This document shows positions 18,392 to 29,377 of a stretch of DNA of 64,000 nt, piece by piece. The translations under genes were made by a program, and so were the position numbers. This stretch comes from a virus (lineage: Duplodnaviria > Heunggongvirae > Uroviricota > Caudoviricetes). The notes beneath the pieces are model-generated. The model saw only the letters and a program-made list of their open reading frames with translations. It had not been told where the DNA came from and did no database searches. Position 1 is the stretch's first letter, and the number at the start of each line of letters is the position of its first letter. The DNA lies in IMG/VR virus record IMGVR_UViG_3300028888_000043, positions 265,756 through 329,755 of that record; one strand, written 5' to 3'.

Positions 18392-19111
18392 CTATGTCCA
18401 AAGTGCAAAGAAATATTTCCTGAACAAGTCAAGTGACTTATCTATGATTTCATCCTCATCCTTTGTCTTTATCTCATCAGACACCATCAATTCAAACCCT
18501 TTCAGCATGTCTTCAAGTATCTTCAACCACTCATCAAGTGATTTCATATCAGCGGGATGACATTTCATTTCCTTCACATCCTCTATGAATGCCTTGAGTC
18601 TTGGATAGACGAACCTTGCGATCGTACCGTCAAGATTCCAGGTCTCCGAGATGTCAAATCCCCTTTCCAGTCTCTGCTGTGTGTATGCCTCCCATCTGTC
18701 ATCATCCGGATCCACCAGGGAGAAGCAGACATTTGGAATACCATACGGGTCTCTTGCCTGGACATCTGGGTCAGTCCTGTCATATGAGTAATAGAACTTG
18801 GCCAGGTCATAGGAACGAACCCTGTCATAGTTCAAATCAACCACATACTGGTATTTGCCCATTGAAGGATTGAGTTCAACACCCGTATTGACCTCTTTGT
18901 AGAGGTCATAACTGTTTTCATCCTGATGATTGTGGATATGTGTCATATACAAATCTTTGAAAAACTTGATATATGACTTGTACTCAAAGAAGGTGTACTT
19001 CTTTTTCAGGTTGCACTCTTTGATAAGATTTTCATCCTTGATGGTCACTTTCACAATACCTCCATGGTTGAAGAACTCCAATGGGGTTAATTCATCTAAA
19101 ATTACTTCCAT
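18392..19111 (-). CDS. Hypothetical phage protein
   Basis: 239 aa; WNLD..IA.F..PRL...F..LW C-terminal domain. Confidence 0.6.
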   Translation of the reverse strand: MEVILDELTPLEFFNHGGIVKVTIKDENLIKECNLKKKYTFFEYKSYIKFFKDLYMTHIHNHQDENSYDLYKEVNTGVELNPSMGKYQYVVDLNYDRVRSYDLAKFYYSYDRTDPDVQARDPYGIPNVCFSLVDPDDDRWEAYTQQRLERGFDISETWNLDGTIARFVYPRLKAFIEDVKEMKCHPADMKSLDEWLKILEDMLKGFELMVSDEIKTKDEDEIIDKSLDLFRKYFFALWT

Positions 19112-19132
19112 ATAGTTGATTTCTTATGAAAT

Positions 19133-19165
19133 AAAGATAACAAAAATCCCGGATTTGTTATATTT
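19133..19165. promoter_or_regulatory. Divergent pair of TTTGTTAT(A/C)TTT promoter motifs
   Basis: AAAGATAACAAA (minus copy) and TTTGTTATATTT at 19154-19165. Confidence 0.65.
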
Positions 19166-19176
19166 AAGGTGCTATT

Positions 19177-20433
19177 ATGAAAGAGTGTAGATACATAGAA
19201 CTGTTTGCCGGTGTAGGTGGATTTCATGTCGGTCTTGACAGGGCAGACAAGGATTTCTTCAAGTGTGTGATGGCCAACCAGTGGGAACCTGGATCCAAAG
19301 ACCAGTTTGCAGCTGACATATACAGGAAGAGATTCCCTGATGACCTGTTGATAAATGATGATGTCAACAACATCAGTGGAAAGGATTATGAAGTAGATCT
19401 GCTTGTGGGTGGTTTTCCATGTCAAGATTACAGTGTTGCCAGGAACAAGTCCAAGTCATTTGGTATAGAAGGTAAGAAGGGTGTTCTCTGGTGGCAGGTC
19501 ATCAGAATCATCTGGGAGATGAAAGTGAAACCGAAGTATCTTCTGTTTGAGAATGTGGACAGGATGATAATCTCCCCTTCCAAGCAGAGAGGAAGGGATT
19601 TTGCTCTCATCTTACAGTCATTGATTAATCTTGGATATGACATAGAATGGAGAGTCATCAATGCTGCGGACTATGGAATGCCACAGAAAAGGAAAAGAAT
19701 CTTCCTTTTTGCGTTCCAAAATGGTAGTTTTGATGTGAAGAGTCCAGATTCCTGGTTGTATAAGGATGGTGTTCTTGCTAAAGCATTCCCTGTGAAAGAA
19801 GACCCAGAACTTGGTCTCTGGGGACTTGACCAGAGAGAGTTGAATTCAGACCTTGTATATCTCTCTGACCATTTCAATGAGAGAAACATCCTGGACCATC
19901 CATTCGAGAATGCCGGCGTGGTGATAGATGGTTATATTTCCACAGTAAAGGTCAAAACGGACTATTCTGGACCATTTATGACACTGGGTGGTGTTCTTGC
20001 CTATGGAGAGGATAGAAAACTCATTACAGAGGACTTTTACCTGTCTGATGAGGATGTGAAGAAGTGGGAGTATGCCAAGGGTCACAAATCATTCGAGAGA
20101 ACAAGTAAGGATGGTTATACCTACACTTACAATGAAGGCGCTATGGCATTCCCGGATTATCTGGATAAACCTGCCAGGACATTGATAACAAGTGAGGTCT
20201 CCACTACTCCGAACAGGTTCACCCATATCATAAGGGATCCAGAGAATGGGAGATTGAGAAGACTGATTCCACTGGAGTTGGAAAGGATACAGATGTTCCC
20301 AGATAACCATACAGAAGGAACTACTGACAAGAAAAGGGGATTTCTGATGGGTAATGCCCTGGTGTGTGGGATTGTCGAGAGGATTGGAATTGAATTGAAG
20401 AAAAGGATATATGAAGATAACCACATTGGATGA
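19177..20433 (+). CDS. dcm: DNA cytosine-C5 methyltransferase, M.Sau3AI-like (probable GATC)
   Basis: ELFAGVGG, ANQWEP, GGFPCQDYSVA, ENVDR, QRGRDFA, QKRKRIF, MGNA; matches recalled M.Sau3AI blocks. Confidence 0.9.
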   Translation: MKECRYIELFAGVGGFHVGLDRADKDFFKCVMANQWEPGSKDQFAADIYRKRFPDDLLINDDVNNISGKDYEVDLLVGGFPCQDYSVARNKSKSFGIEGKKGVLWWQVIRIIWEMKVKPKYLLFENVDRMIISPSKQRGRDFALILQSLINLGYDIEWRVINAADYGMPQKRKRIFLFAFQNGSFDVKSPDSWLYKDGVLAKAFPVKEDPELGLWGLDQRELNSDLVYLSDHFNERNILDHPFENAGVVIDGYISTVKVKTDYSGPFMTLGGVLAYGEDRKLITEDFYLSDEDVKKWEYAKGHKSFERTSKDGYTYTYNEGAMAFPDYLDKPARTLITSEVSTTPNRFTHIIRDPENGRLRRLIPLELERIQMFPDNHTEGTTDKKRGFLMGNALVCGIVERIGIELKKRIYEDNHIG

Positions 20434-20944
20434 GATAATTGAGAGAGATGTTCCGGAAGAACTCTATTTCAAGAAGAAGGACTGGGAGAAAAGAAAGTAT
20501 CTCAGGACTACTCTTCCAATGATGTGTACCGTGAAAGGGGATGATGTCTATCTCTTTGTGGAAGGAGTCAAACCTCCACAGATATTGAAGCAGAAGAGAA
20601 CCGAGGATGAGAAACTGAGGAGACACAGGTTCGGTGACAAGGGGAAGAAGTTCGGAAAGGGAGTCTATGCTGAACCCACAGGTGACGGATATTCCAACAC
20701 CCTGACTACATTCTCTATGGATAATTATGTCTGGGACAGGAACTACAAGGTGAGAGAACTGACTGACAGGGAGGCATTCAGGTTGATGGATGTAGATCCG
20801 GAAGATGTTGATAAGATATTGGATGCTGTTCCTTCTAAATACTGCAAAAAATTGTCAGGCAACAGTATTGTGGTCAATGTGATGACAGAGATATTCAGGA
20901 ATTTATTTGGTGAAAGAACTAACCCAGAAATACCTTTATTTTAA
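20411..20944 (+). CDS. C5-MTase C-terminal subunit 1 (TRD + motifs IX-X)
   Basis: DGYSNTLTT TRD, RELTDREAFRLMD (IX), SGNSIVVNV (X); no motifs I-VIII. Confidence 0.8.
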   Translation: MKITTLDEIIERDVPEELYFKKKDWEKRKYLRTTLPMMCTVKGDDVYLFVEGVKPPQILKQKRTEDEKLRRHRFGDKGKKFGKGVYAEPTGDGYSNTLTTFSMDNYVWDRNYKVRELTDREAFRLMDVDPEDVDKILDAVPSKYCKKLSGNSIVVNVMTEIFRNLFGERTNPEIPLF

Positions 20945-20949
20945 GAATT

Positions 20950-21279
20950 ATGAGTATTTGGTGTGATATACACAGAAGAAGTAATGGTCTCCAGGAAAGG
21001 GAAGAAGACAAAAACAGATATATCAAACTTGATAAGATTGAAGAAATATTGAAATCTATGAAGGTTGGTACAAAGAAAGGTGAATATCCTCCGGTGTTTG
21101 CTTTGAATATTCTTGTTGAACATTTTGATGGTAATGTTGTATCATATTCAATAATGGCAGCATCAACTCAACATGCAGACGGAAGTAGAGATTTTTATTC
21201 AGAACCTGTTTTGAATTCATTTAAAGAAATAATGGATAACAGAGGGAATATTATTGAAATAACCAAGTTGTTTTTATGA
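20950..21279 (+). CDS. Hypothetical protein
   Basis: 109-aa ORF in operon. Confidence 0.55.
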   Translation: MSIWCDIHRRSNGLQEREEDKNRYIKLDKIEEILKSMKVGTKKGEYPPVFALNILVEHFDGNVVSYSIMAASTQHADGSRDFYSEPVLNSFKEIMDNRGNIIEITKLFL

Positions 21280-21286
21280 GTATTAT

Positions 21287-21772
21287 ATGAAACATTTAGT
21301 AGTAATTGCAGAAAAAGAAGAATTTAAGTTGGTTGAGAAACTGGGGTATGATAATTATCCTATTCTCATCACTGGTGTGGGTGCATTGAATGTCATTGAT
21401 GCATTGAAAGACATACCGAAGGACACAAACCTGATAAACATAGGTTATGCAGGAAGTAAAGACCTTGAACCAGGGAAGTTCTACACAGTGAATATGGTGT
21501 CTCTGTATCATCCCAATGTGGATTATTTTGAACGTCAGTATGAACTTGGTTGGATTCCCTGGATGGTTGAGTCAGAGGATGATGAACCTATGATACCAGT
21601 GAAGTGTCTGACTGGGACTGATTTTGTGCTTGAATCAAATGTCAAAGGATGTGTCTTTGATATGGAATTAGCATATATCAAGGCACTTGGTTTTGAGAAT
21701 GTCATTGCTTATAAGTATGTGAGTGACAACCTGGATTTACAGGAATATAGAGAGAAGTTCAATGAGAAATGA
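21287..21772 (+). CDS. MTA/SAH nucleosidase-like (PNP/UDP phosphorylase fold) protein
   Basis: VIA..EE, TGVG..N, INIGYAG, TGTDFV, DME and VSD motifs. Confidence 0.7.
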   Translation: MKHLVVIAEKEEFKLVEKLGYDNYPILITGVGALNVIDALKDIPKDTNLINIGYAGSKDLEPGKFYTVNMVSLYHPNVDYFERQYELGWIPWMVESEDDEPMIPVKCLTGTDFVLESNVKGCVFDMELAYIKALGFENVIAYKYVSDNLDLQEYREKFNEK

Positions 21773-22100
21773 TGTCCATATAGTGAAGGTTGGACCTCAT
21801 CAGCAGGACACTGTGATGTACACTGATGGGGTCTGCCGCTGTATCTGTGTGGGCCATCACAACAACACCAACAGTTACCTGAAAATCCTGGACAATGGAA
21901 AAGTCAGGAAGATGACCACCAAGGAAATCGGGAGACTGATGGGTGTGGATGACAAGGACATAGACACTATGATGGGTGTCCTGGCTCCTGGATCAGTCAA
22001 TTCCTTGTTTGGGAACTCCATTGTGGTGGATGTTCTGGAAGGTGTATTCAGGAACTTGTTTTATGGGGAAGATAAACCAAAAGATATTAAATTGTTTTGA
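21762..22100 (+). CDS. C5-MTase C-terminal subunit 2 (TRD + motifs IX-X)
   Basis: HQQDTV...DG TRD-like segment, RKMTTKEIGRLMG, FGNSIVVDVL; ATG at 21762 preferred. Confidence 0.78.
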   Translation: MRNDVHIVKVGPHQQDTVMYTDGVCRCICVGHHNNTNSYLKILDNGKVRKMTTKEIGRLMGVDDKDIDTMMGVLAPGSVNSLFGNSIVVDVLEGVFRNLFYGEDKPKDIKLF

Positions 22101-22531
22101 TATGGGGATTAAATTGGAAGACTTTGCAAAAGCTGGTGTTGCTTCACCAAAAATCGGAGGAGTTAAGTTTATGAATGATGGTCATAAAGAGTTTGATTTC
22201 ATCAAGTATGAACATCCAAAGAAAGATTGGGGGAACATATTTCTCTATGCTTTGATATATTTTTGTTTGTTTGGTATTTTTTATTTGGTACAATTCATAT
22301 GATACAGGAAAAGAAGATTTATAAAATGAAAGAACTGGAACAGTTCGTACATGACCACATCCAGCAGAAGATTAACAACAATGAACTTCATCTGACAGGA
22401 ATAAGTATGACAGGTGATACTAATATTTTCAAAAGGGAGTTTGAAATATATCAGAATGCCCTGTTGGAAGGTATAGTCAATGGTATCATTATGTGTGATG
22501 GTGAAGTTGAAGGCATTGAAACAGATTAGAT

Positions 22532-22819
22532 ATGGGAAAGGGAAAACCAAGAACTGCTGTTCACAGGAGGGTGAACAGTATGTTAAAGAAATTCGGTAGC
22601 GAATGTGAATGGTGGGATGGAGGTTATCCTGAATGTATGCTACCATGGGACGGGAAGTGTTCTGGCAATCCGTTTGTCTGTAAGAAACTGTATATGCAGT
22701 ATCTTGCATCTTCAAAGAAGATTGACCAGAATGTTGTAGCAGAGTTTGAGAACCGTGAAAAGGATTCATTAAAAGAAAAATATCCAAACTATGACACCAG
22801 AAGAGAAATCAGTATTTGA
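22532..22819 (+). CDS. Hypothetical Cys-containing protein
   Basis: 95 aa in a tightly packed operon. Confidence 0.5.
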   Translation: MGKGKPRTAVHRRVNSMLKKFGSECEWWDGGYPECMLPWDGKCSGNPFVCKKLYMQYLASSKKIDQNVVAEFENREKDSLKEKYPNYDTRREISI

Positions 22820-23231
22820 CGAGTATGGTACTGCATATCCCTGTTGTGGGAACTGTGCCAACATCCGGGAGGCATGTTGGAAGTTGATGTGTAAATTGAA
22901 CTATGAATATAGGGAGTTCGGATCATTGAAATGTGTTTATTACAAGTTTAAGCAGAATGTACCTGTATTGGAAGAACTCATTGAACAGAGAGAATCATTA
23001 AATTAAACAATTATGACACAGGAAGAACTTAGAAAATATCTCTGGGAGAAATGGAGTAATTATTCAAGGGGACTTTCCATCTCTTATTCTTTCAGGAAGA
23101 ACAAGGAACTGACTATAAAGGATGTGGAGGATGCCTTCGAGTCTGGGTTCTATGAATTCCAGCAGATTTGTTACAAGAACAATATCAAGATGGAAGACCT
23201 TAAATTGGAGTAATTTTGTTATATTTAATAT

Positions 23232-23450
23232 ATGAAAAAGTACAAAATCAGAAAGTTGACACCAAGGGAGTGTTATAGATTAATGGGTGTGGAAGATACA
23301 GACACAGATAAATTACTTGGAACTGATTTGAAAGATTCAAATCATTATAAACTTGCAGGTAATTCTATTGTTGTGGATTGTATGGTTCATATGTTTGACA
23401 AGTTGTTCTTTAACAGGAATGAACCTAAGAAAAAAATTACATTATGGTAA
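23232..23450 (+). CDS. C5-MTase C-terminal subunit 3 (motifs IX-X only)
   Basis: IRKLTPRECYRLMG, YKLAGNSIVVDC; own TTTGTTATATTT motif at 23215-23226. Confidence 0.8.
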   Translation: MKKYKIRKLTPRECYRLMGVEDTDTDKLLGTDLKDSNHYKLAGNSIVVDCMVHMFDKLFFNRNEPKKKITLW

Positions 23451-23465
23451 AAAATAGGGATAGAA

Positions 23466-24524
23466 CTAAATTCTATCCCTTATTTGTTGTAAAATATCAT
23501 CTAATTTTGTTGAGAAGATTTCAATCCAATTCAGATTGTTTTTCTTTGCAATATCTCTCTTTTCAACATCTCTTATTGTCCAGTTTTCTATTGCATTTTG
23601 ATAGTATTTACTGTTTTTTGATTTTTCCTGCCAATTTAATAATGTCTTCTCATCATTTTCATCTGACAAATATGGGTGGAATCCATGTGTCCATGTTCCA
23701 TTAATTTCAAGGAATAAATCAGTTTGTGGAAAATAAAAATCACAAATGAAATTGTATCTATTTTTGTCTCTGTGATGCTGAATATAATTTATATGATTTT
23801 CATCTAACCAGTTTTTAAGTTTATTCTCAATGGATGATGATTTGAATGAATGGTTTATTTTCTTTGTTGTTATTTGTTTTGTGTACCAATCATCTTTAAT
23901 ATCTTTCATATGGTATTTATATTCATTTGTTTGAGAATATGTATTACAGTGATATTTTTCATTGCAAGTTTTCATCATTTTATCTGTATTCCTATATTCT
24001 TCATCTCCATATTTTTTCAATCTTGTTTCTTTTGATTTCTTCAATATTTCTTTGGAATCAAAACCAACACCACCATATCTTTTTGTTGCAGTTTTAACAG
24101 CTCTATTTTTTAGTTCTTTATTTTGTTGTGGAAATTCTACACCAAATTTATCTTTACAAGTTGATTTAAATAATTCCAATTTATGCGGATCTACATCTGC
24201 ACATTTTGTACAACAATGTTGATTATATCCACCACCTGTAAAATAGTTGAATTTACATCTATTTCCACATTTACAAATACCAAGTTCAAATTTTGTATCA
24301 TTCTGTAAGAAATGCCAAAGTAATTGAGAAAACTTCCAACCACTTGCAAATTCTGGAATAATCATCTGCAAAAAGTCATCATATAATTCTGGAAATCTAT
24401 ACTTAAAATTCCGTCTATGTGTTAAACAGAGTTTTGGATGAGATATTATGAAATGAAAAACATCATCCTTTGACATTTGAGACAGATTTATAGGAAAACC
24501 TATCTCATCTAATTTTTGAGACAT
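23466..24524 (-). mobile_element. Free-standing putative homing endonuclease (Vsr/DUF559-like nuclease domain with KYG-repeat DNA-binding region)
   Basis: SSIE...DFY...LEING..THG nuclease, K(Y/F)G repeats, Cys cluster; AT-rich; antisense to neighbours; likely start MSQKL at 24524. Confidence 0.7.
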
Positions 24525-24657
24525 AAATATATTGAAAATTATTGTTTTTATAAGAGGACTTATAGTGAATTCCACAATTCACAAAAATGTAAGTCCTCTT
24601 ATTATATTTATGAAAGTTTGTTATATTTATTATGTTAAAGAAATATATTGGATTTTG

Positions 24658-24894
24658 ATGGATGATATAGTAACAAAAGATGGGATATTCAAATACAGAT
24701 GGGAATCAGAATTTCTTGGTAAAAAAGGATGTGATGTTTGCTTTTTAAAAGATGATGAATATTGTCCAAAAGAAAAATGTACAAAGGATGGGTGTTATGT
24801 TATAATGACACAACGTGAACAGCTTAATGAGAGGATACAAAAGTGGTTGGATGAAAAGAAGTTAAAGAAACAGCAAGAACTTGATAATAAATAG
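24658..24894 (+). CDS. Small Cys-rich hypothetical protein
   Basis: ATG after TTTGTTATATTT (24617-24628). Confidence 0.5.
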   Translation: MDDIVTKDGIFKYRWESEFLGKKGCDVCFLKDDEYCPKEKCTKDGCYVIMTQREQLNERIQKWLDEKKLKKQQELDNK

Positions 24895-24899
24895 GTTTT

Positions 24900-25646
24900 A
24901 TGGTAAAGAAATATACAAAAGAAAATCCATTGAGGGTGTTTACAGCATTCTCTGGTTATGATTCCCAGTGTCTTGCACTCAACAGACTGGGAATTACTTA
25001 TGATTTGGTGGGTTGGTCAGAGATTGACCCTGCCGCCATCAAGGCGCATGATGCTCTGTTCCCACAGTATGCTGACAGAAATTATGGTGACATCTCCAAG
25101 ATTGATTGGTCACAAGTTCCTGATTTTGATTTGTTTACTTATTCAAGTCCTTGTACTGACTTCAGTAATGCCGGTGCACAGGCAGGTGGTGAGGAAGGTT
25201 CTGGTACCAGGTCATCCCTTCTGTGGGAATGTAGGAAGACTATCCTTGCCAAGAAACCCAAATATCTGATGTTCGAGAATGTAAAGGCTCTCACATCAGA
25301 GAAGTTCTTCTATCTCTTTGACAAGTGGTGTAAGGAACTGGAGTCTTATGGTTATGCCAATTTCTACCAGATATTGAATGCCAAGAACTATGGGGTCCCA
25401 CAGTCAAGGGAAAGGATTTTTATGATTTCTATTTTGAAAACTGATGATGAACCTGATCCATACTATGAGTTCCCTAAACCTGTCAAATTGGAGAAGTGTA
25501 TAGAGGACATTCTTGAGGATGATGTTCCTGAGAAGTACTATATGAAACCGGAAGTAACTGAGAAGTACATTGAAATTATGAATCAGGAGTATCCGGATGA
25601 GGTTGGTGAGGACATTGATGTGGAGGATTACACTGGGTTATGGTAA
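24900..25646 (+). CDS. C5-MTase catalytic N-terminal subunit (motifs I-VIII only)
   Basis: FTAFSGYDSQ (I), SEID (II), GDI (III), SSPCTDFS (IV), ENV (VI), PQSRERIF (VIII); ends before the TRD and motifs IX-X. Confidence 0.85.
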   Translation: MVKKYTKENPLRVFTAFSGYDSQCLALNRLGITYDLVGWSEIDPAAIKAHDALFPQYADRNYGDISKIDWSQVPDFDLFTYSSPCTDFSNAGAQAGGEEGSGTRSSLLWECRKTILAKKPKYLMFENVKALTSEKFFYLFDKWCKELESYGYANFYQILNAKNYGVPQSRERIFMISILKTDDEPDPYYEFPKPVKLEKCIEDILEDDVPEKYYMKPEVTEKYIEIMNQEYPDEVGEDIDVEDYTGLW

Positions 25647-25978
25647 GGAAGGCTATAAATACTTGTACTGACGGGACATGTAGGACAATAGTTTCCTGGT
25701 ATGCCAAGGGTGGCAGGAGTAATTTCGCTGCCTGGAATGGTACTGACAGATTTCTTATGACTGCTGTCCTGGAAGAATATGATGAAGAAGAACTTATGGA
25801 AAGAAAAGAAAGATTTATAGTTGACCATCAGGGTTATGGTAAGGCTGACCCCAGACCTGGATCTCATCTTGTTTTACCATCCAACAAAAAAACATGTACC
25901 ACCTTGACTACCTTCTGTGGTTTGAACAAGGCTGTTGTTGAAGTCTATGAGGATGATGAAAATTCAGACAGTGAGTAG
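25640..25978 (+). CDS. Stand-alone TRD-like protein of split C5-MTase
   Basis: Two TRD-like segments (DGTCRTIVSWYAKG; KTCTTLTT); start overlaps the catalytic subunit stop. Confidence 0.6.
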   Translation: MVRKAINTCTDGTCRTIVSWYAKGGRSNFAAWNGTDRFLMTAVLEEYDEEELMERKERFIVDHQGYGKADPRPGSHLVLPSNKKTCTTLTTFCGLNKAVVEVYEDDENSDSE

Positions 25979-25980
25979 TT

Positions 25981-26844
25981 ATGGAGAAGTTAAGTAATTT
26001 GAATGAGGCGAGAAGGGTGTTCATATATAATCATAAGACTATGCCCTTTGAATTTGCAGAAATTTGTAAAATGGATAAGTTCCAGACTAAAATTGCACAA
26101 AGGACAGGAAAGCCTTGGAGAAATTCTGTTGAACTAAACAAGTTCCTTAAAAATGATTATGCCGGTGAACTCCCAAAGAGTCTTTTGGAATTGGCCAGGA
26201 GGTTAAAGGAACCGGACTATATCTGTGATTTGTTCTATATGAGTGAAGATGGGTATAAGAACATGTACCCGGAAGAGTATGCCAATTTCTTTGAGAACAA
26301 ACCACAGTGGGAGAAGGAGAAGATATTCCAGGCCGCCGATTATGGTGCAAGGACATTGTTTGAGTTTGAGCAGGATGTGAAGGCCGGAAATTTGATGGAG
26401 GATATGATTGCCTACCATACAAAAGGTATCCTTTCTCCTAATGAGAATGCATCCGGTAGAGGTTCTGATGTACTTTCAACATCCTGTGACTTCATATTCA
26501 GAAGTCCCGATGACAGTATAGAGCAACCTGTCGAGTTGAAGACCAAGTGGGTTTACAAACTGAAGGACAAGGAGATTGTACAGATGAGAGGTACGATAGA
26601 CACAATCCTTAAAGAAAAGGGTATGGTCTTGGCCATATACATCAAAATGAACAAGGCGATACTGATTGATCCCATTGGGAAACATTATAATATGACACCA
26701 GGGAAGATGAAAAATGGGAAAGACTGTGTGAACATAGAGGTTGACAAGAATGATATTGTTGATTTCAAGTTTTGGAATAAAGAAGACCTCAAAAAAATGA
26801 TGCATATGATTTTAGACCAGCACAATGCAAGAGAAACCAAGTAG
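25981..26844 (+). CDS. Hypothetical protein, possible PD-(D/E)xK nuclease
   Basis: E...CDFIF...VELKTK pattern. Confidence 0.4.
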   Translation: MEKLSNLNEARRVFIYNHKTMPFEFAEICKMDKFQTKIAQRTGKPWRNSVELNKFLKNDYAGELPKSLLELARRLKEPDYICDLFYMSEDGYKNMYPEEYANFFENKPQWEKEKIFQAADYGARTLFEFEQDVKAGNLMEDMIAYHTKGILSPNENASGRGSDVLSTSCDFIFRSPDDSIEQPVELKTKWVYKLKDKEIVQMRGTIDTILKEKGMVLAIYIKMNKAILIDPIGKHYNMTPGKMKNGKDCVNIEVDKNDIVDFKFWNKEDLKKMMHMILDQHNARETK

Positions 26845-26888
26845 GTTTCTCTTTTTGTTATATTTAGGTATATAAAATTATTGATATT

Positions 26889-27155
26889 ATGGATGATAAC
26901 AAGTTGGTAATCCTTATACCAAGCAGTTCCCATATAGAGGAGTTGAAGCAGAAGGGGATAGATATTGAGACCGAACTGGCAAGGGTTGTCTTTGACAATC
27001 TCAATCTCATCAAGCAGGGACAGAATCCAAAGACATTGGGTATCAGTGTGACCAGGGAACAGATGAATGACCTGGCCAAGTATGGTATTGATGGACCTGG
27101 ATACATCTCCGCTACCTTCAAGAAGGAACTGCATGAGAGACTGGTGAAAAAGTGA
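26889..27155 (+). CDS. Small protein resembling a major-capsid helix
   Basis: VTREQMNDLAKYGID vs MCP ITREQIQDLKAYGID; promoter motif at 26854-26865. Confidence 0.65.
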   Translation: MDDNKLVILIPSSSHIEELKQKGIDIETELARVVFDNLNLIKQGQNPKTLGISVTREQMNDLAKYGIDGPGYISATFKKELHERLVKK

Positions 27156-27955: not shown

Positions 27956-29377
27956 ATGAGTGATGTTGTAAAAGACAATGGCAGAATCTATACTCCGGCA
28001 AACATCGTGAAGATGATGCTGGATTATGCTGGTTATGTCCCTGGTCCCTGGATATGGAAGAAGCATGTCATCGACAACAGTTGCGGTGACGGGCAGATTT
28101 TGTGTGAGGTGGTCAGGAGATACATCACTTCATTTTCCAATCCGGGTGACTGGGAACTCCGGGACCAGTTGAAGGAATACATCCATGGTATAGAACTGGA
28201 TGAGACTGAATGTAATAAGTGTAAGGAGAACCTGAACAGGATTCTTGATGAATATTATATAGAGAGAATTGACTGGGACATCAGGTGTGGGAATTCCCTC
28301 ACTTTCAGGGATGAGTTCAGGGGGAAGATGGACTATGTGTTTGGTAATCCCCCTTATGTGAGGACAAAGAACATCAAGAAGTCTGATGATGATTACAAGA
28401 TATTGAGATGGTATGATTTTTCATCGACAGGTATGTCAGATCTCTACCTGGCATTCTATGAGCTTGGACTTGATATGAGGAATTCCGGAGGTATCCTGTG
28501 TTATATCGCACCCAGTTCCTGGACCAACAGTGTTTCCGGGAAAGTGATGAGATTCCATATCTCTGAGACAAGGGAATTGGCAGCAGTCATTGATTTCGGC
28601 CATTATCAGGTTTTTGACAATGCCACCACCTATGTGATGATAACCCTGTTTGACAACCATCCGCACAAGTACATCAGGTATGACAGGTATGAAGGGGAAT
28701 TGAAACAGGATTCTTTATTGTCCTATGAGGATGTGTTCATTGATGACAAGATGTATTTTGCATCCAAGGATGAGTGCGATGTATTGAAAATGGTGATGAA
28801 TACAAGTAAGAAAAAGATAGAAGTGAAGAATGGATATGCCACCTTGGCAGATGACATCTTCATTGACAATCTGCCTGATTTCAAGAATTACACCATTGAT
28901 GTGGTCAAGGCATCCACAGGACAGTGGAAGAAGTGTCTGTTCCCTTATGACAAGGATTTGAACCTCATCCCTATGAATGTGATAGAAAAGGTTAATCCGG
29001 AAGTATATGACTATTTTGTGCGGAATTATACCACATTGGATGCAAGGACTTATGATTCCAAGGGAAAGGAAGACACCTGGCATTCCATCGGAAGGAGTCA
29101 GGGATTGAAGGACACCTTTGTGAACAAGGTTTCTGTCAACAATCTTGTCAAGACTACTGATGATTTGAAACTGGTGGATGTTCCTTCTGGAAAGGGAGTC
29201 TATGGCGGACTTTACATCAAGACAGAAATGTCTGCGGATGAAATCAGGAATCTGCTTGCGAACGATGAGTTCGTCAGTTATGTGAAGACATTGAGGAAGT
29301 ACAAGAGCGGAGGTTATTATACCTTCTCATCAAAGGATTTGGAAAAGTATTTAAATTACAAGATGTATGGTGATTAA
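27956..29377 (+). CDS. Amino (N6-adenine) DNA methyltransferase, gamma class (Eco57I/TaqI-like)
   Basis: YTP, DNSCGDG (SAM binding), GIELD, GNPPY, DLY..F. Confidence 0.88.
   Translation: MSDVVKDNGRIYTPANIVKMMLDYAGYVPGPWIWKKHVIDNSCGDGQILCEVVRRYITSFSNPGDWELRDQLKEYIHGIELDETECNKCKENLNRILDEYYIERIDWDIRCGNSLTFRDEFRGKMDYVFGNPPYVRTKNIKKSDDDYKILRWYDFSSTGMSDLYLAFYELGLDMRNSGGILCYIAPSSWTNSVSGKVMRFHISETRELAAVIDFGHYQVFDNATTYVMITLFDNHPHKYIRYDRYEGELKQDSLLSYEDVFIDDKMYFASKDECDVLKMVMNTSKKKIEVKNGYATLADDIFIDNLPDFKNYTIDVVKASTGQWKKCLFPYDKDLNLIPMNVIEKVNPEVYDYFVRNYTTLDARTYDSKGKEDTWHSIGRSQGLKDTFVNKVSVNNLVKTTDDLKLVDVPSGKGVYGGLYIKTEMSADEIRNLLANDEFVSYVKTLRKYKSGGYYTFSSKDLEKYLNYKMYGD

Follow-up and report, generated by a model that had tools for sequence, protein, structure and literature searches.

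The window analysed here, a stretch of 64,000 nucleotides (nt), corresponds to G000:C1:265756-329755 of a 411,604-bp virus record with a CheckV completeness of 94%, and carries a cluster of genes that hold the conserved motifs of a C5-cytosine DNA methyltransferase (MTase) in pieces. The source genome is that of a jumbo phage of 412 kb, and a megablast search of the GenBank phages with positions 19000-27000 gave no match and no near relative. We listed the open reading frames (ORFs) of the window and determined their motif content with the Pfam profile PF00145 (profile length 324). Five ORFs, here named b1, b2, b3, alpha and trd, have an open frame with an ATG start; the frame of b2 extends at its longest to a GTG at 21723, and the ATG at 21762 is the start conserved in relatives. 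The C5 MTase motifs are spread over separate ORFs, with motifs I-VIII in alpha and motifs IX-X upstream of it in b1, b2 and b3, each of which matches the C-terminal end of the profile to position 322 above the curated cut-off; the I-to-X order of a single-chain enzyme is not found among them. The fifth ORF, trd, consists of two segments, segA and segB, that resemble target recognition domains (TRDs). These results agree with a preliminary description of this DNA, which had listed five intact ORFs with this distribution of motifs and, at 25640-25978, two TRD-like segments overlapping the stop codon of the catalytic chain. Beyond the content of that description, the analysis brought up a complete C5 MTase ahead of b1, a homing-endonuclease-like ORF between b3 and alpha and a second split pair just outside the window (see below). 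Genome-wide we counted one full C5 MTase, two orphan N-terminal halves and four C-terminal halves, and the same 1:2:4 count was obtained in G003, a relative with 94% completeness.

Table. Features of the split methyltransferase region (positions in the window; aa, amino acids)
Feature	Position	Strand	Remarks
Complete single-chain C5 MTase, 418 aa	19177-20433	+	PF00145 positions 2-323, E 4e-60; end overlaps b1 start
b1, 177 aa	20411-20944	+	post-motif-VIII segment, TRD unit, motifs IX-X; PF00145 198-322; ends ...EIPLF
Conserved ORF, 161 aa, between b1 and b2	21287-21772	+	PNP/MTAN-superfamily-like
b2, 112 aa	21762-22100	+	compact TRD and motifs IX-X; PF00145 260-322; ends ...DIKLF
Promoter-like 11-mer TTGTTATATTT	23216-23226	+	6 nt upstream of b3 start
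b3, 72 aa	23232-23450	+	motifs IX-X only; PF00145 271-322; ends ...ITLW; stop inside the 9-mer TTATGGTAA
Copies of TTATGGTAA	23442-23450, 24898-24906, 25638-25646, 25834-25842		b3 end; alpha start; alpha end/trd start; inside trd
Hairpin, 10-11 bp stem	23456-23480	both	between b3 stop and endonuclease stop; terminator-like both ways
Homing-endonuclease-like ORF, 369 aa	23466-24575	-	PHROG 3339 'homing endonuclease' E 2e-10; Pfam DUF7487
Small 78-aa ORF, close ahead of alpha	24658-24894	+	L009 has a 76% identical ORF in this position
alpha, catalytic chain, 248 aa	24900-25646	+	motifs I-VIII; PF00145 positions 6-219, 171 bits
segA, first half of trd, TRD unit	25640-25795	+	residues 1-50; found alone as 58-103-aa proteins
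segB, second half of trd, TRD unit with TL motif	25799-25978	+	residues 54-112; found alone as 58-88-aa proteins

The genes b3, alpha and trd follow one another in the order IX-X, I-VIII, TRD. In the family alignment, residues P84-C85, E126-N127-V128 and Q168/R170/R172 (QxRxR) of alpha are invariant, and after motif VIII the chain runs into an acidic tail ending in TGLW. Stand-alone IX-X proteins like b3, of 39-126 aa, form 644 clusters. The alpha stop and the trd start overlap within the 9-mer TTATGGTAA, which encodes Leu-Trp-stop over Met-Val and is present in 6 copies in the window against 0.9 expected; the fourth copy of the table falls at the invariant Gly-Tyr-Gly-Lys of trd. For comparison we used related IMG/VR contigs of 58-388 kb, recovered by scans with alpha and b1 and referred to by L numbers. 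In L008, L010, L017 and L021 the b3 stop and the alpha start overlap by 7 nt, and in L008 and L021 the alpha stop and the trd start overlap in the same way. In L016 (332 aa) and L023 (287 aa) motifs IX-X and I-VIII are joined in one polypeptide with two PF00145 stretches, separate TRD ORFs come after it, and L016 carries one TRD unit ahead of motif IX. Motif X thus stands before motif I by gene order in the window and within a single chain in these two contigs. A type H layout, with an N-terminal TRD before motif IX, is not what the window holds, as b3 begins at motif IX and the TRD ORF comes after motif VIII. The presence of TTATGGTAA at all the junctions, together with the overlaps in relatives, points to b3-alpha-trd as the ancestral unit, and the three genes appear to form one circularly permuted enzyme (IX-X, I-VIII, TRD), cut between the TRD and motif IX.

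In the window this unit is interrupted. An insert of 1.45 kb (23451-24897), bounded by TTATGGTAA at 23442 and 24898, holds the homing-endonuclease-like ORF, which has no counterpart in any related locus compared, as well as the hairpin and the 78-aa ORF; stretches 23200-23237 and 24602-24639 are repeats with 76% identity. From these sequence features, the insert is probably a mobile cassette that entered the b3/alpha junction and left both genes intact. The preliminary description had spoken of a permuted order, and the order is indeed permuted; the genes are not scattered, however, but form a contiguous permutation interrupted by the endonuclease cassette. In L009 and L010, ORFs inserted at the same junctions likewise start with Met-Val-Lys/Arg-Asn. 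TTATGGTAA may be an insertion hot spot.

With one mismatch allowed, the window holds 19 copies of the 11-mer TTGTTATATTT, where 3.5 are expected. Beside the copy ahead of b3, copies lie at 19155 (before the full MTase), at 24618 (ahead of the 78-aa ORF), at 26855 and at 15 other sites, and those in the split MTase region stand 5-30 nt upstream of gene starts. TTGTTATATTT is a candidate phage promoter element; the promoter motif that b3 had been said to have of its own is thus present as an enriched 11-mer, its role as a promoter being putative.

One could also imagine that the chains are joined at the level of DNA, RNA or translation, by a recombination switch, splicing or a frameshift, and work as single-chain enzymes. 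The form of the junction (A-TGG-TAA / ATG-GTA-A) could in principle permit a change of frame, and fused forms occur in other phages. Against this, the window holds only short repeats and none, long direct or inverted, that would suit an inversion or deletion switch, Rfam reported nothing at gathering score across the window and no sign of an intron, and the intervening ORFs are conserved protein genes. Moreover, b3 and alpha are both intact although 1.4 kb, with a hairpin and a gene on the reverse strand, separates them. We consider such joining very improbable.

We modelled the complex by folding alpha, b3 and trd together, with an own alignment for each chain and trd as the scored partner. 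The median interface score (ipSAE) was 0.65, compared to 0.01 for the best of three controls. Of 80 solved complexes 58 reach the mark used for this score, and of 110 mismatched pairs 2 do, a calibration that is rough here given the own alignments and the three chains. The runs agreed in at least 71% of the contacts, and the local confidence (pLDDT) of the partner was at least 56. In the model, residues 98-103 of trd pair with residues 2-8 of b3, the strand of motif IX, while T88/L89 of trd contact residues 168-170 of alpha, in motif VIII. In this model segB would occupy the position of a covalent TRD; the pass may reflect the likeness to solved single-chain C5 MTases. Because of the stop/start overlaps in relatives, the fusion in L016 and L023 and this model, we take alpha, b3 and trd as one unit, in line with the earlier proposal of a unit of the catalytic chain, a free TRD and the third IX-X chain.

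The nature of trd was examined by profile searches. Pfam gave no match with trd, its halves or their relatives, even at E 10, and profile searches of the PDB with segA and segB returned chance-level matches only. In a full HMMER scan against 1.84 billion representatives, trd had only 15 relatives, all of 36-113 aa; nearly all carry segA alone or segB alone, and in L017 the two are separate genes at different places, so that the halves of trd can be regarded as independent modules. The hidden Markov model (HMM) of segA matches residues 425-464 of P0095 (36 bits) and residues 485-520 of P0147 (29 bits), two metagenomic PF00145 proteins of 523 and 656 aa, respectively, and the matched segments are TRD units that stand directly before motif IX or another TRD. 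By hhalign, segA shows no similarity to the b1 family, and segB is related to the TRD core of that family (E 5e-5, probability 68%). segB also matches TLTT units in P0107 and P0106, weakly but repeatedly, and has an acidic tail after its terminal strand. P0095 combines, in one chain, an alpha-like N-terminus, a b1-type TRD, a segA-type TRD and b3-like motifs IX-X; its close homologue P0085 gave, by direct alignment, 35% identity to alpha and 44% to b1. All the parts for which this phage has separate genes are therefore united in one chain of a known type. For each of the four TRD units (b1, b2, segA and segB) there is homology or similarity to units that multi-TRD enzymes carry in tandem, and all four may serve alpha. 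The likeness to multispecific phage enzymes drawn at the outset is backed by the homology of the units of b1 and trd.

The position of b1 and b2 is less direct. The TRD unit of b1 aligns with the last TRD of P0085 (44% over 131 aa), and the b1 family profile matches residues 299-394 of M.MpeI. The closest full-length proteins are only 42-44% identical to b1 over the TRD and IX-X part. A model of b1 alone (AF2, pLDDT 81) was compared with Foldseek, and most of the top-ranked rows, the first 21 included, are C5 MTases, though none reached E 0.001. Across five related contigs, b2 is 70-84% identical. The IX-X modules were compared by HMM scores and not by a tree, as about 60 columns are too few: the b3-family HMM detects those of b1 and b2 with 71 bits, and that of a further chain, beta4 (see below), with 69 bits. 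Motif X and the helix after it are conserved among b1, b2 and b3. alpha is the sole orphan large domain in the cluster, and b1 (with b2 where present) accompanies b3-alpha in every contig that reaches far enough and adjoins it in L017 and L021. Based on this synteny and on the b3-type IX-X modules, b1 and b2 are most likely alternative partners of alpha that compete with b3.

A second split C5 MTase, in natural order, lies about 2.7 kb past the window end (G000:C1:332497-333680; L038:1488-2680). Its genes, alpha2 (239-242 aa) and beta4 (155 aa), overlap by 4 nt, and alpha2 is 55% identical to alpha. This pair is of the M.AquI type, one alpha with one adjacent beta in natural order; in the window such an arrangement was not found, as b1, b2 and b3 lie upstream of alpha and are set apart from it by other genes. 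It could be that only b3+alpha+trd and alpha2+beta4 form enzymes, and that b1 and b2 are partners of alpha2 or stand-alone small domains with another role, for example sequence-specific DNA binding for site occlusion or regulation. The separation of b1 and b2 from alpha by unrelated genes, the different TTGTTATATTT copy upstream of them and the existence of alpha2 would fit with this. On the other hand, motif X and the C-terminal helix, sensible only when docked on a large domain, are conserved in b1 and b2 as in b3, alpha2 has its own overlapping partner, and in L017 and L021 b1 (and b2) directly adjoin b3-alpha. We judge this explanation to be rather unlikely, though it deserves more weight than the other alternatives to a shared alpha.

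The relatives also inform on the age of the split. The order full MTase-b1-b2-b3-alpha-trd is kept in L008/L018, L009, L010 and L017, with 56-93% amino acid identity, and alpha is 78-87% identical in relatives. In L021/L024 an N6/N4 methyltransferase is followed directly by b1, b3, alpha and trd; in L021, b1 stands directly before b3-alpha and no full MTase adjoins. Stand-alone relatives of the length of b1 (175-179 aa) form about 50 clusters at 90% identity. The ratios of nonsynonymous to synonymous substitution rates (dN/dS; pairwise Nei-Gojobori estimates, with dS near or above 1) were 0.04-0.13 for b1, 0.06-0.20 for b2, 0.10-0.31 for b3, about 0.1 for alpha and 0.08-0.18 for trd, compared to 0.07-0.10 for the intact neighbouring 418-aa MTase. 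The purifying dN/dS, the conserved order and the b1-length clusters together indicate that the split forms are old and stable genes. Neutral decay, for which the preliminary description had named dN/dS and the conservation of the split points as the check, is thus not what the pieces show.

It follows that it is very doubtful that the small ORFs are remnants of MTase genes broken by mobile elements, with only the full-length enzyme at work. The locus is certainly a hot spot of mobile DNA, given the endonuclease cassette, the other ORFs found at these junctions in L009 and L010 and the inteins in relatives (see below). Nevertheless, at dS of about 1 or more all the pieces keep dN/dS of 0.05-0.3, lengths and starts are conserved, as with b1, and there are no frame breaks in at least five independent contigs. 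An assembly or sequencing artefact, conceivable for a metagenome-derived record, has a negligible chance of explaining the split, since the split points are the same in assemblies that are independent of one another and come from different samples and collections. The number and arrangement of the TRD minigenes differ between relatives, and the plug-in design that had been suggested for this system fits with such variation.

Taken together, we propose that the cluster encodes a phage C5 DNA methyltransferase of the multispecific type that has been split into separately translated chains, with alpha shared by small-domain subunits, a reading to which we give a probability of roughly 0.6. In this enzyme b3 would give motifs IX-X, alpha motifs I-VIII with the catalytic Cys, and trd free TRD units. 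segB would dock as a covalent TRD does, the last strand pairing with the motif IX strand in b3 and the TL motif facing motif VIII in alpha, and segA, the second TRD unit, may occupy the same place in turn. b1 and b2, with their own TRD and b3-type motifs IX-X, would compete with b3 for the single orphan alpha, and the sharing of alpha among several small-domain subunits would lead to the methylation of several sequences. The homing-endonuclease cassette, with its own terminator and promoter-like copy, would have entered the b3/alpha junction harmlessly. The pairing of b1 and b2 with alpha, the catalytic activity, the number of specificities and an anti-restriction role are to be understood as presumed parts of this proposal.

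Several points weigh against it. In the model of alpha, b3 and trd, segA has no confident placement, and the model of b1 alone, searched with Foldseek against the PDB, had no match at E 0.001 or better. The cut is not clean, as the post-motif-VIII segment is present in both b1 and alpha. The second alpha-like chain beyond the window, alpha2, could take b1 or b2. Finally, an engineered split into [IX-X-I-VIII] and [TRD] was inactive for M.MpeI and M.SssI (PMC5944983). Overall, the observation made in the preliminary description is confirmed and its interpretation is partly supported.

The split chains share the region with other genes. The complete single-chain MTase stands at the head of the cluster and belongs to a different subfamily: local alignments of its N-terminal half with alpha give 29-38% identity, and its IX-X region is not detected with the b3-family HMM. 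The 161-aa ORF is present in L008, L009, L010 and L030, with dN/dS of 0.14-0.29 in the first three; it stands between b1 and b2 in L008/L018, L009 and L010 and is absent there in L017. It has no Pfam match and no PDB sequence match, and the ESM-Atlas clusters closest to it consist of short PNP_UDP_1 (PF01048) proteins (score 0.93). It is possibly an accessory gene and no part of the methyltransferase, and it may be a nucleosidase that removes S-adenosylhomocysteine. Two kb downstream of the cluster, an Eco57I-type N6-adenine methyltransferase of 473 aa is encoded at 27956-29377 (PF07669, PF02384), so that the region is a methylation island with C5 and N6 enzymes. A tRNA scan found no tRNA.

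In three relatives the catalytic Pro-Cys of motif IV is directly followed by an in-frame insert of about 300-370 aa, namely in the full MTase of L009 (L009:1610-3967) and in alpha of L017 (L017:6666-8474) and L021 (L021:6840-8489). Those of L009 and L017 match Pfam Intein_splicing and LAGLIDADG and are, by these matches, inteins at the catalytic cysteine. Other phage contigs carry further variants of the split. In L039-L044 (10-106 kb) an alpha chain of 240-327 aa is followed, after 1.2-1.6 kb, by a small IX-X gene, and at L042:2772-4001, L040:2374-4001 and L047:4260-5001 the stretch from alpha to IX-X, of 0.7-1.6 kb, has few or no called genes. The ORF listing of this stretch in L040 and L042 gave very small TRD-like ORFs, of about 25-70 aa, that lie in mixed frames; a unit of the b1 type is among them, and several of them end with a hydrophobic strand and an acidic tail. 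These two loci look like multispecific enzymes in which each TRD is its own minigene. Streptococcus phage Javan172 and its relatives have a natural-order C5 MTase in two genes, of 212 and 154 aa (L045, MK448860.1 11008-12150), which carry different annotation names and no flag as one split enzyme. The exploded C5 MTase design seems to be common but unannotated, its minigenes being named 'hypothetical'.

The ends of the chains also have something in common. b1, b2, b3 and alpha all end in x-L-F/W (IPLF, IKLF, ITLW and TGLW, respectively), and neither alpha2 nor beta4 does. Genome-wide this tail occurs in 11 of 489 ORFs, where 2 are expected from composition; it is found in 7 of 12 methyltransferase chains plus polymerase and in 4 of the 477 other ORFs (post-hoc Fisher p = 2e-10), and the tailed ORFs include a B-family DNA polymerase, a Dam-type methyltransferase and an N6/N4 methyltransferase. 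The single-chain relatives L011, L014 and L019 end in LF, and the small IX-X proteins of L040 and L042 end in exact QLSLF, which is a textbook beta-clamp motif (QL[SD]LF type, at the extreme C-terminus). In L039-L041 a dnaN gene stands directly before alpha. The tails of the window have only x-L-F/W in common with the QL[SD]LF pentapeptide, and in b3 and alpha the overlapping start codon also dictates the LW end. A search of this genome with PF00712, PF02916 and PF09116 revealed no clamp gene, a weak negative given that the PF02916 control matched nowhere. That the tails are clamp-binding motifs is a lead suggested by these endings and not a finding. As a tentative and on balance unlikely extension, the subunit-exchange MTase might be tethered to the replication clamp, which would gather alpha and any specificity chain behind the fork while the TRD minigenes swap. 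If this were true, the 412-kb genome would undergo replication-coupled, multi-motif methylation from genes of 60-180 codons; the tail is carried also by the B-family polymerase and by two adenine methyltransferases.

Split, permuted and multispecific C5 MTases are each known, only as single curiosities, and in the literature we found no paper on a natural C5 system with one catalytic chain, several separately encoded specificity chains and motif-free TRDs. If our proposal is true, phages can widen their protection from restriction by adding genes of 60-180 codons, and C5 enzymes gain an organisation like that of Type I systems. The phage genes would also be natural, selected examples of a split that failed when engineered, with relevance to split MTases for targeted DNA methylation.

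Among the known systems, M.AquI is a two-chain C5 MTase (Karreman and de Waard 1990, as cited in PMC3404938); PMC3404938 and PMC5944983 give background on fragment complementation, M.AquI and M.EcoHK31I. As in M.AquI, where the large chain holds motifs I-VIII and the small chain the variable region with motifs IX-X, the large chain here is alpha, and the content of b1 and b2 is that of the M.AquI beta chain. Unlike M.AquI, this phage has one alpha with three IX-X chains in permuted order, one of which, b3, is without a TRD, the TRD being on another chain; plain examples of the M.AquI type are the alpha2/beta4 pair outside the window and the Streptococcus Javan prophage pairs. Circularly permuted C5 MTases include M.BssHII, M.Alw26I, M2.Eco31I, M.Esp3I and M2.BsaI (PMC5944983). 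They share with this system motifs IX-X before motif I, which is so here by gene order and in L016 and L023 within one polypeptide, but the natural ones are mostly of type H (TRD-IX-X-I-VIII) and single chains, whereas b3-alpha-trd has the type J order with a detached TRD.

Bacillus-phage C5 MTases of the SPR and phi3T type are multispecific, with TRDs covalently in tandem. In common with such multi-TRD enzymes (SPR/phi3T type; metagenomic P0085, P0095, P0107 and P0147), the system has one core and several TRD units; the b1 TRD and segA are homologous to tandem units of P0095 and P0147, and the likeness to SPR/phi3T is by type only. It differs from them in that the TRDs are spread over four genes, two of which have their own motifs IX-X. 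The engineered class J split of M.MpeI and M.SssI (PMC5944983) has the topology of b3-alpha plus free trd, exactly that of L023. The engineered pairs were inactive, whereas the conservation of the natural ones under selection implies that these function. Type I restriction-modification systems, in which HsdM is combined with an exchangeable HsdS, are similar in that the catalytic subunit owes its specificity to a second, separate one; this is an analogy only, as the proteins are unrelated and the chemistry is that of N6-adenine. In conclusion, these comparisons suggest that the phage gene set is a variant of the split, permuted and multispecific C5 MTases, in which one core would be given several specificities by the swapping of subunits.

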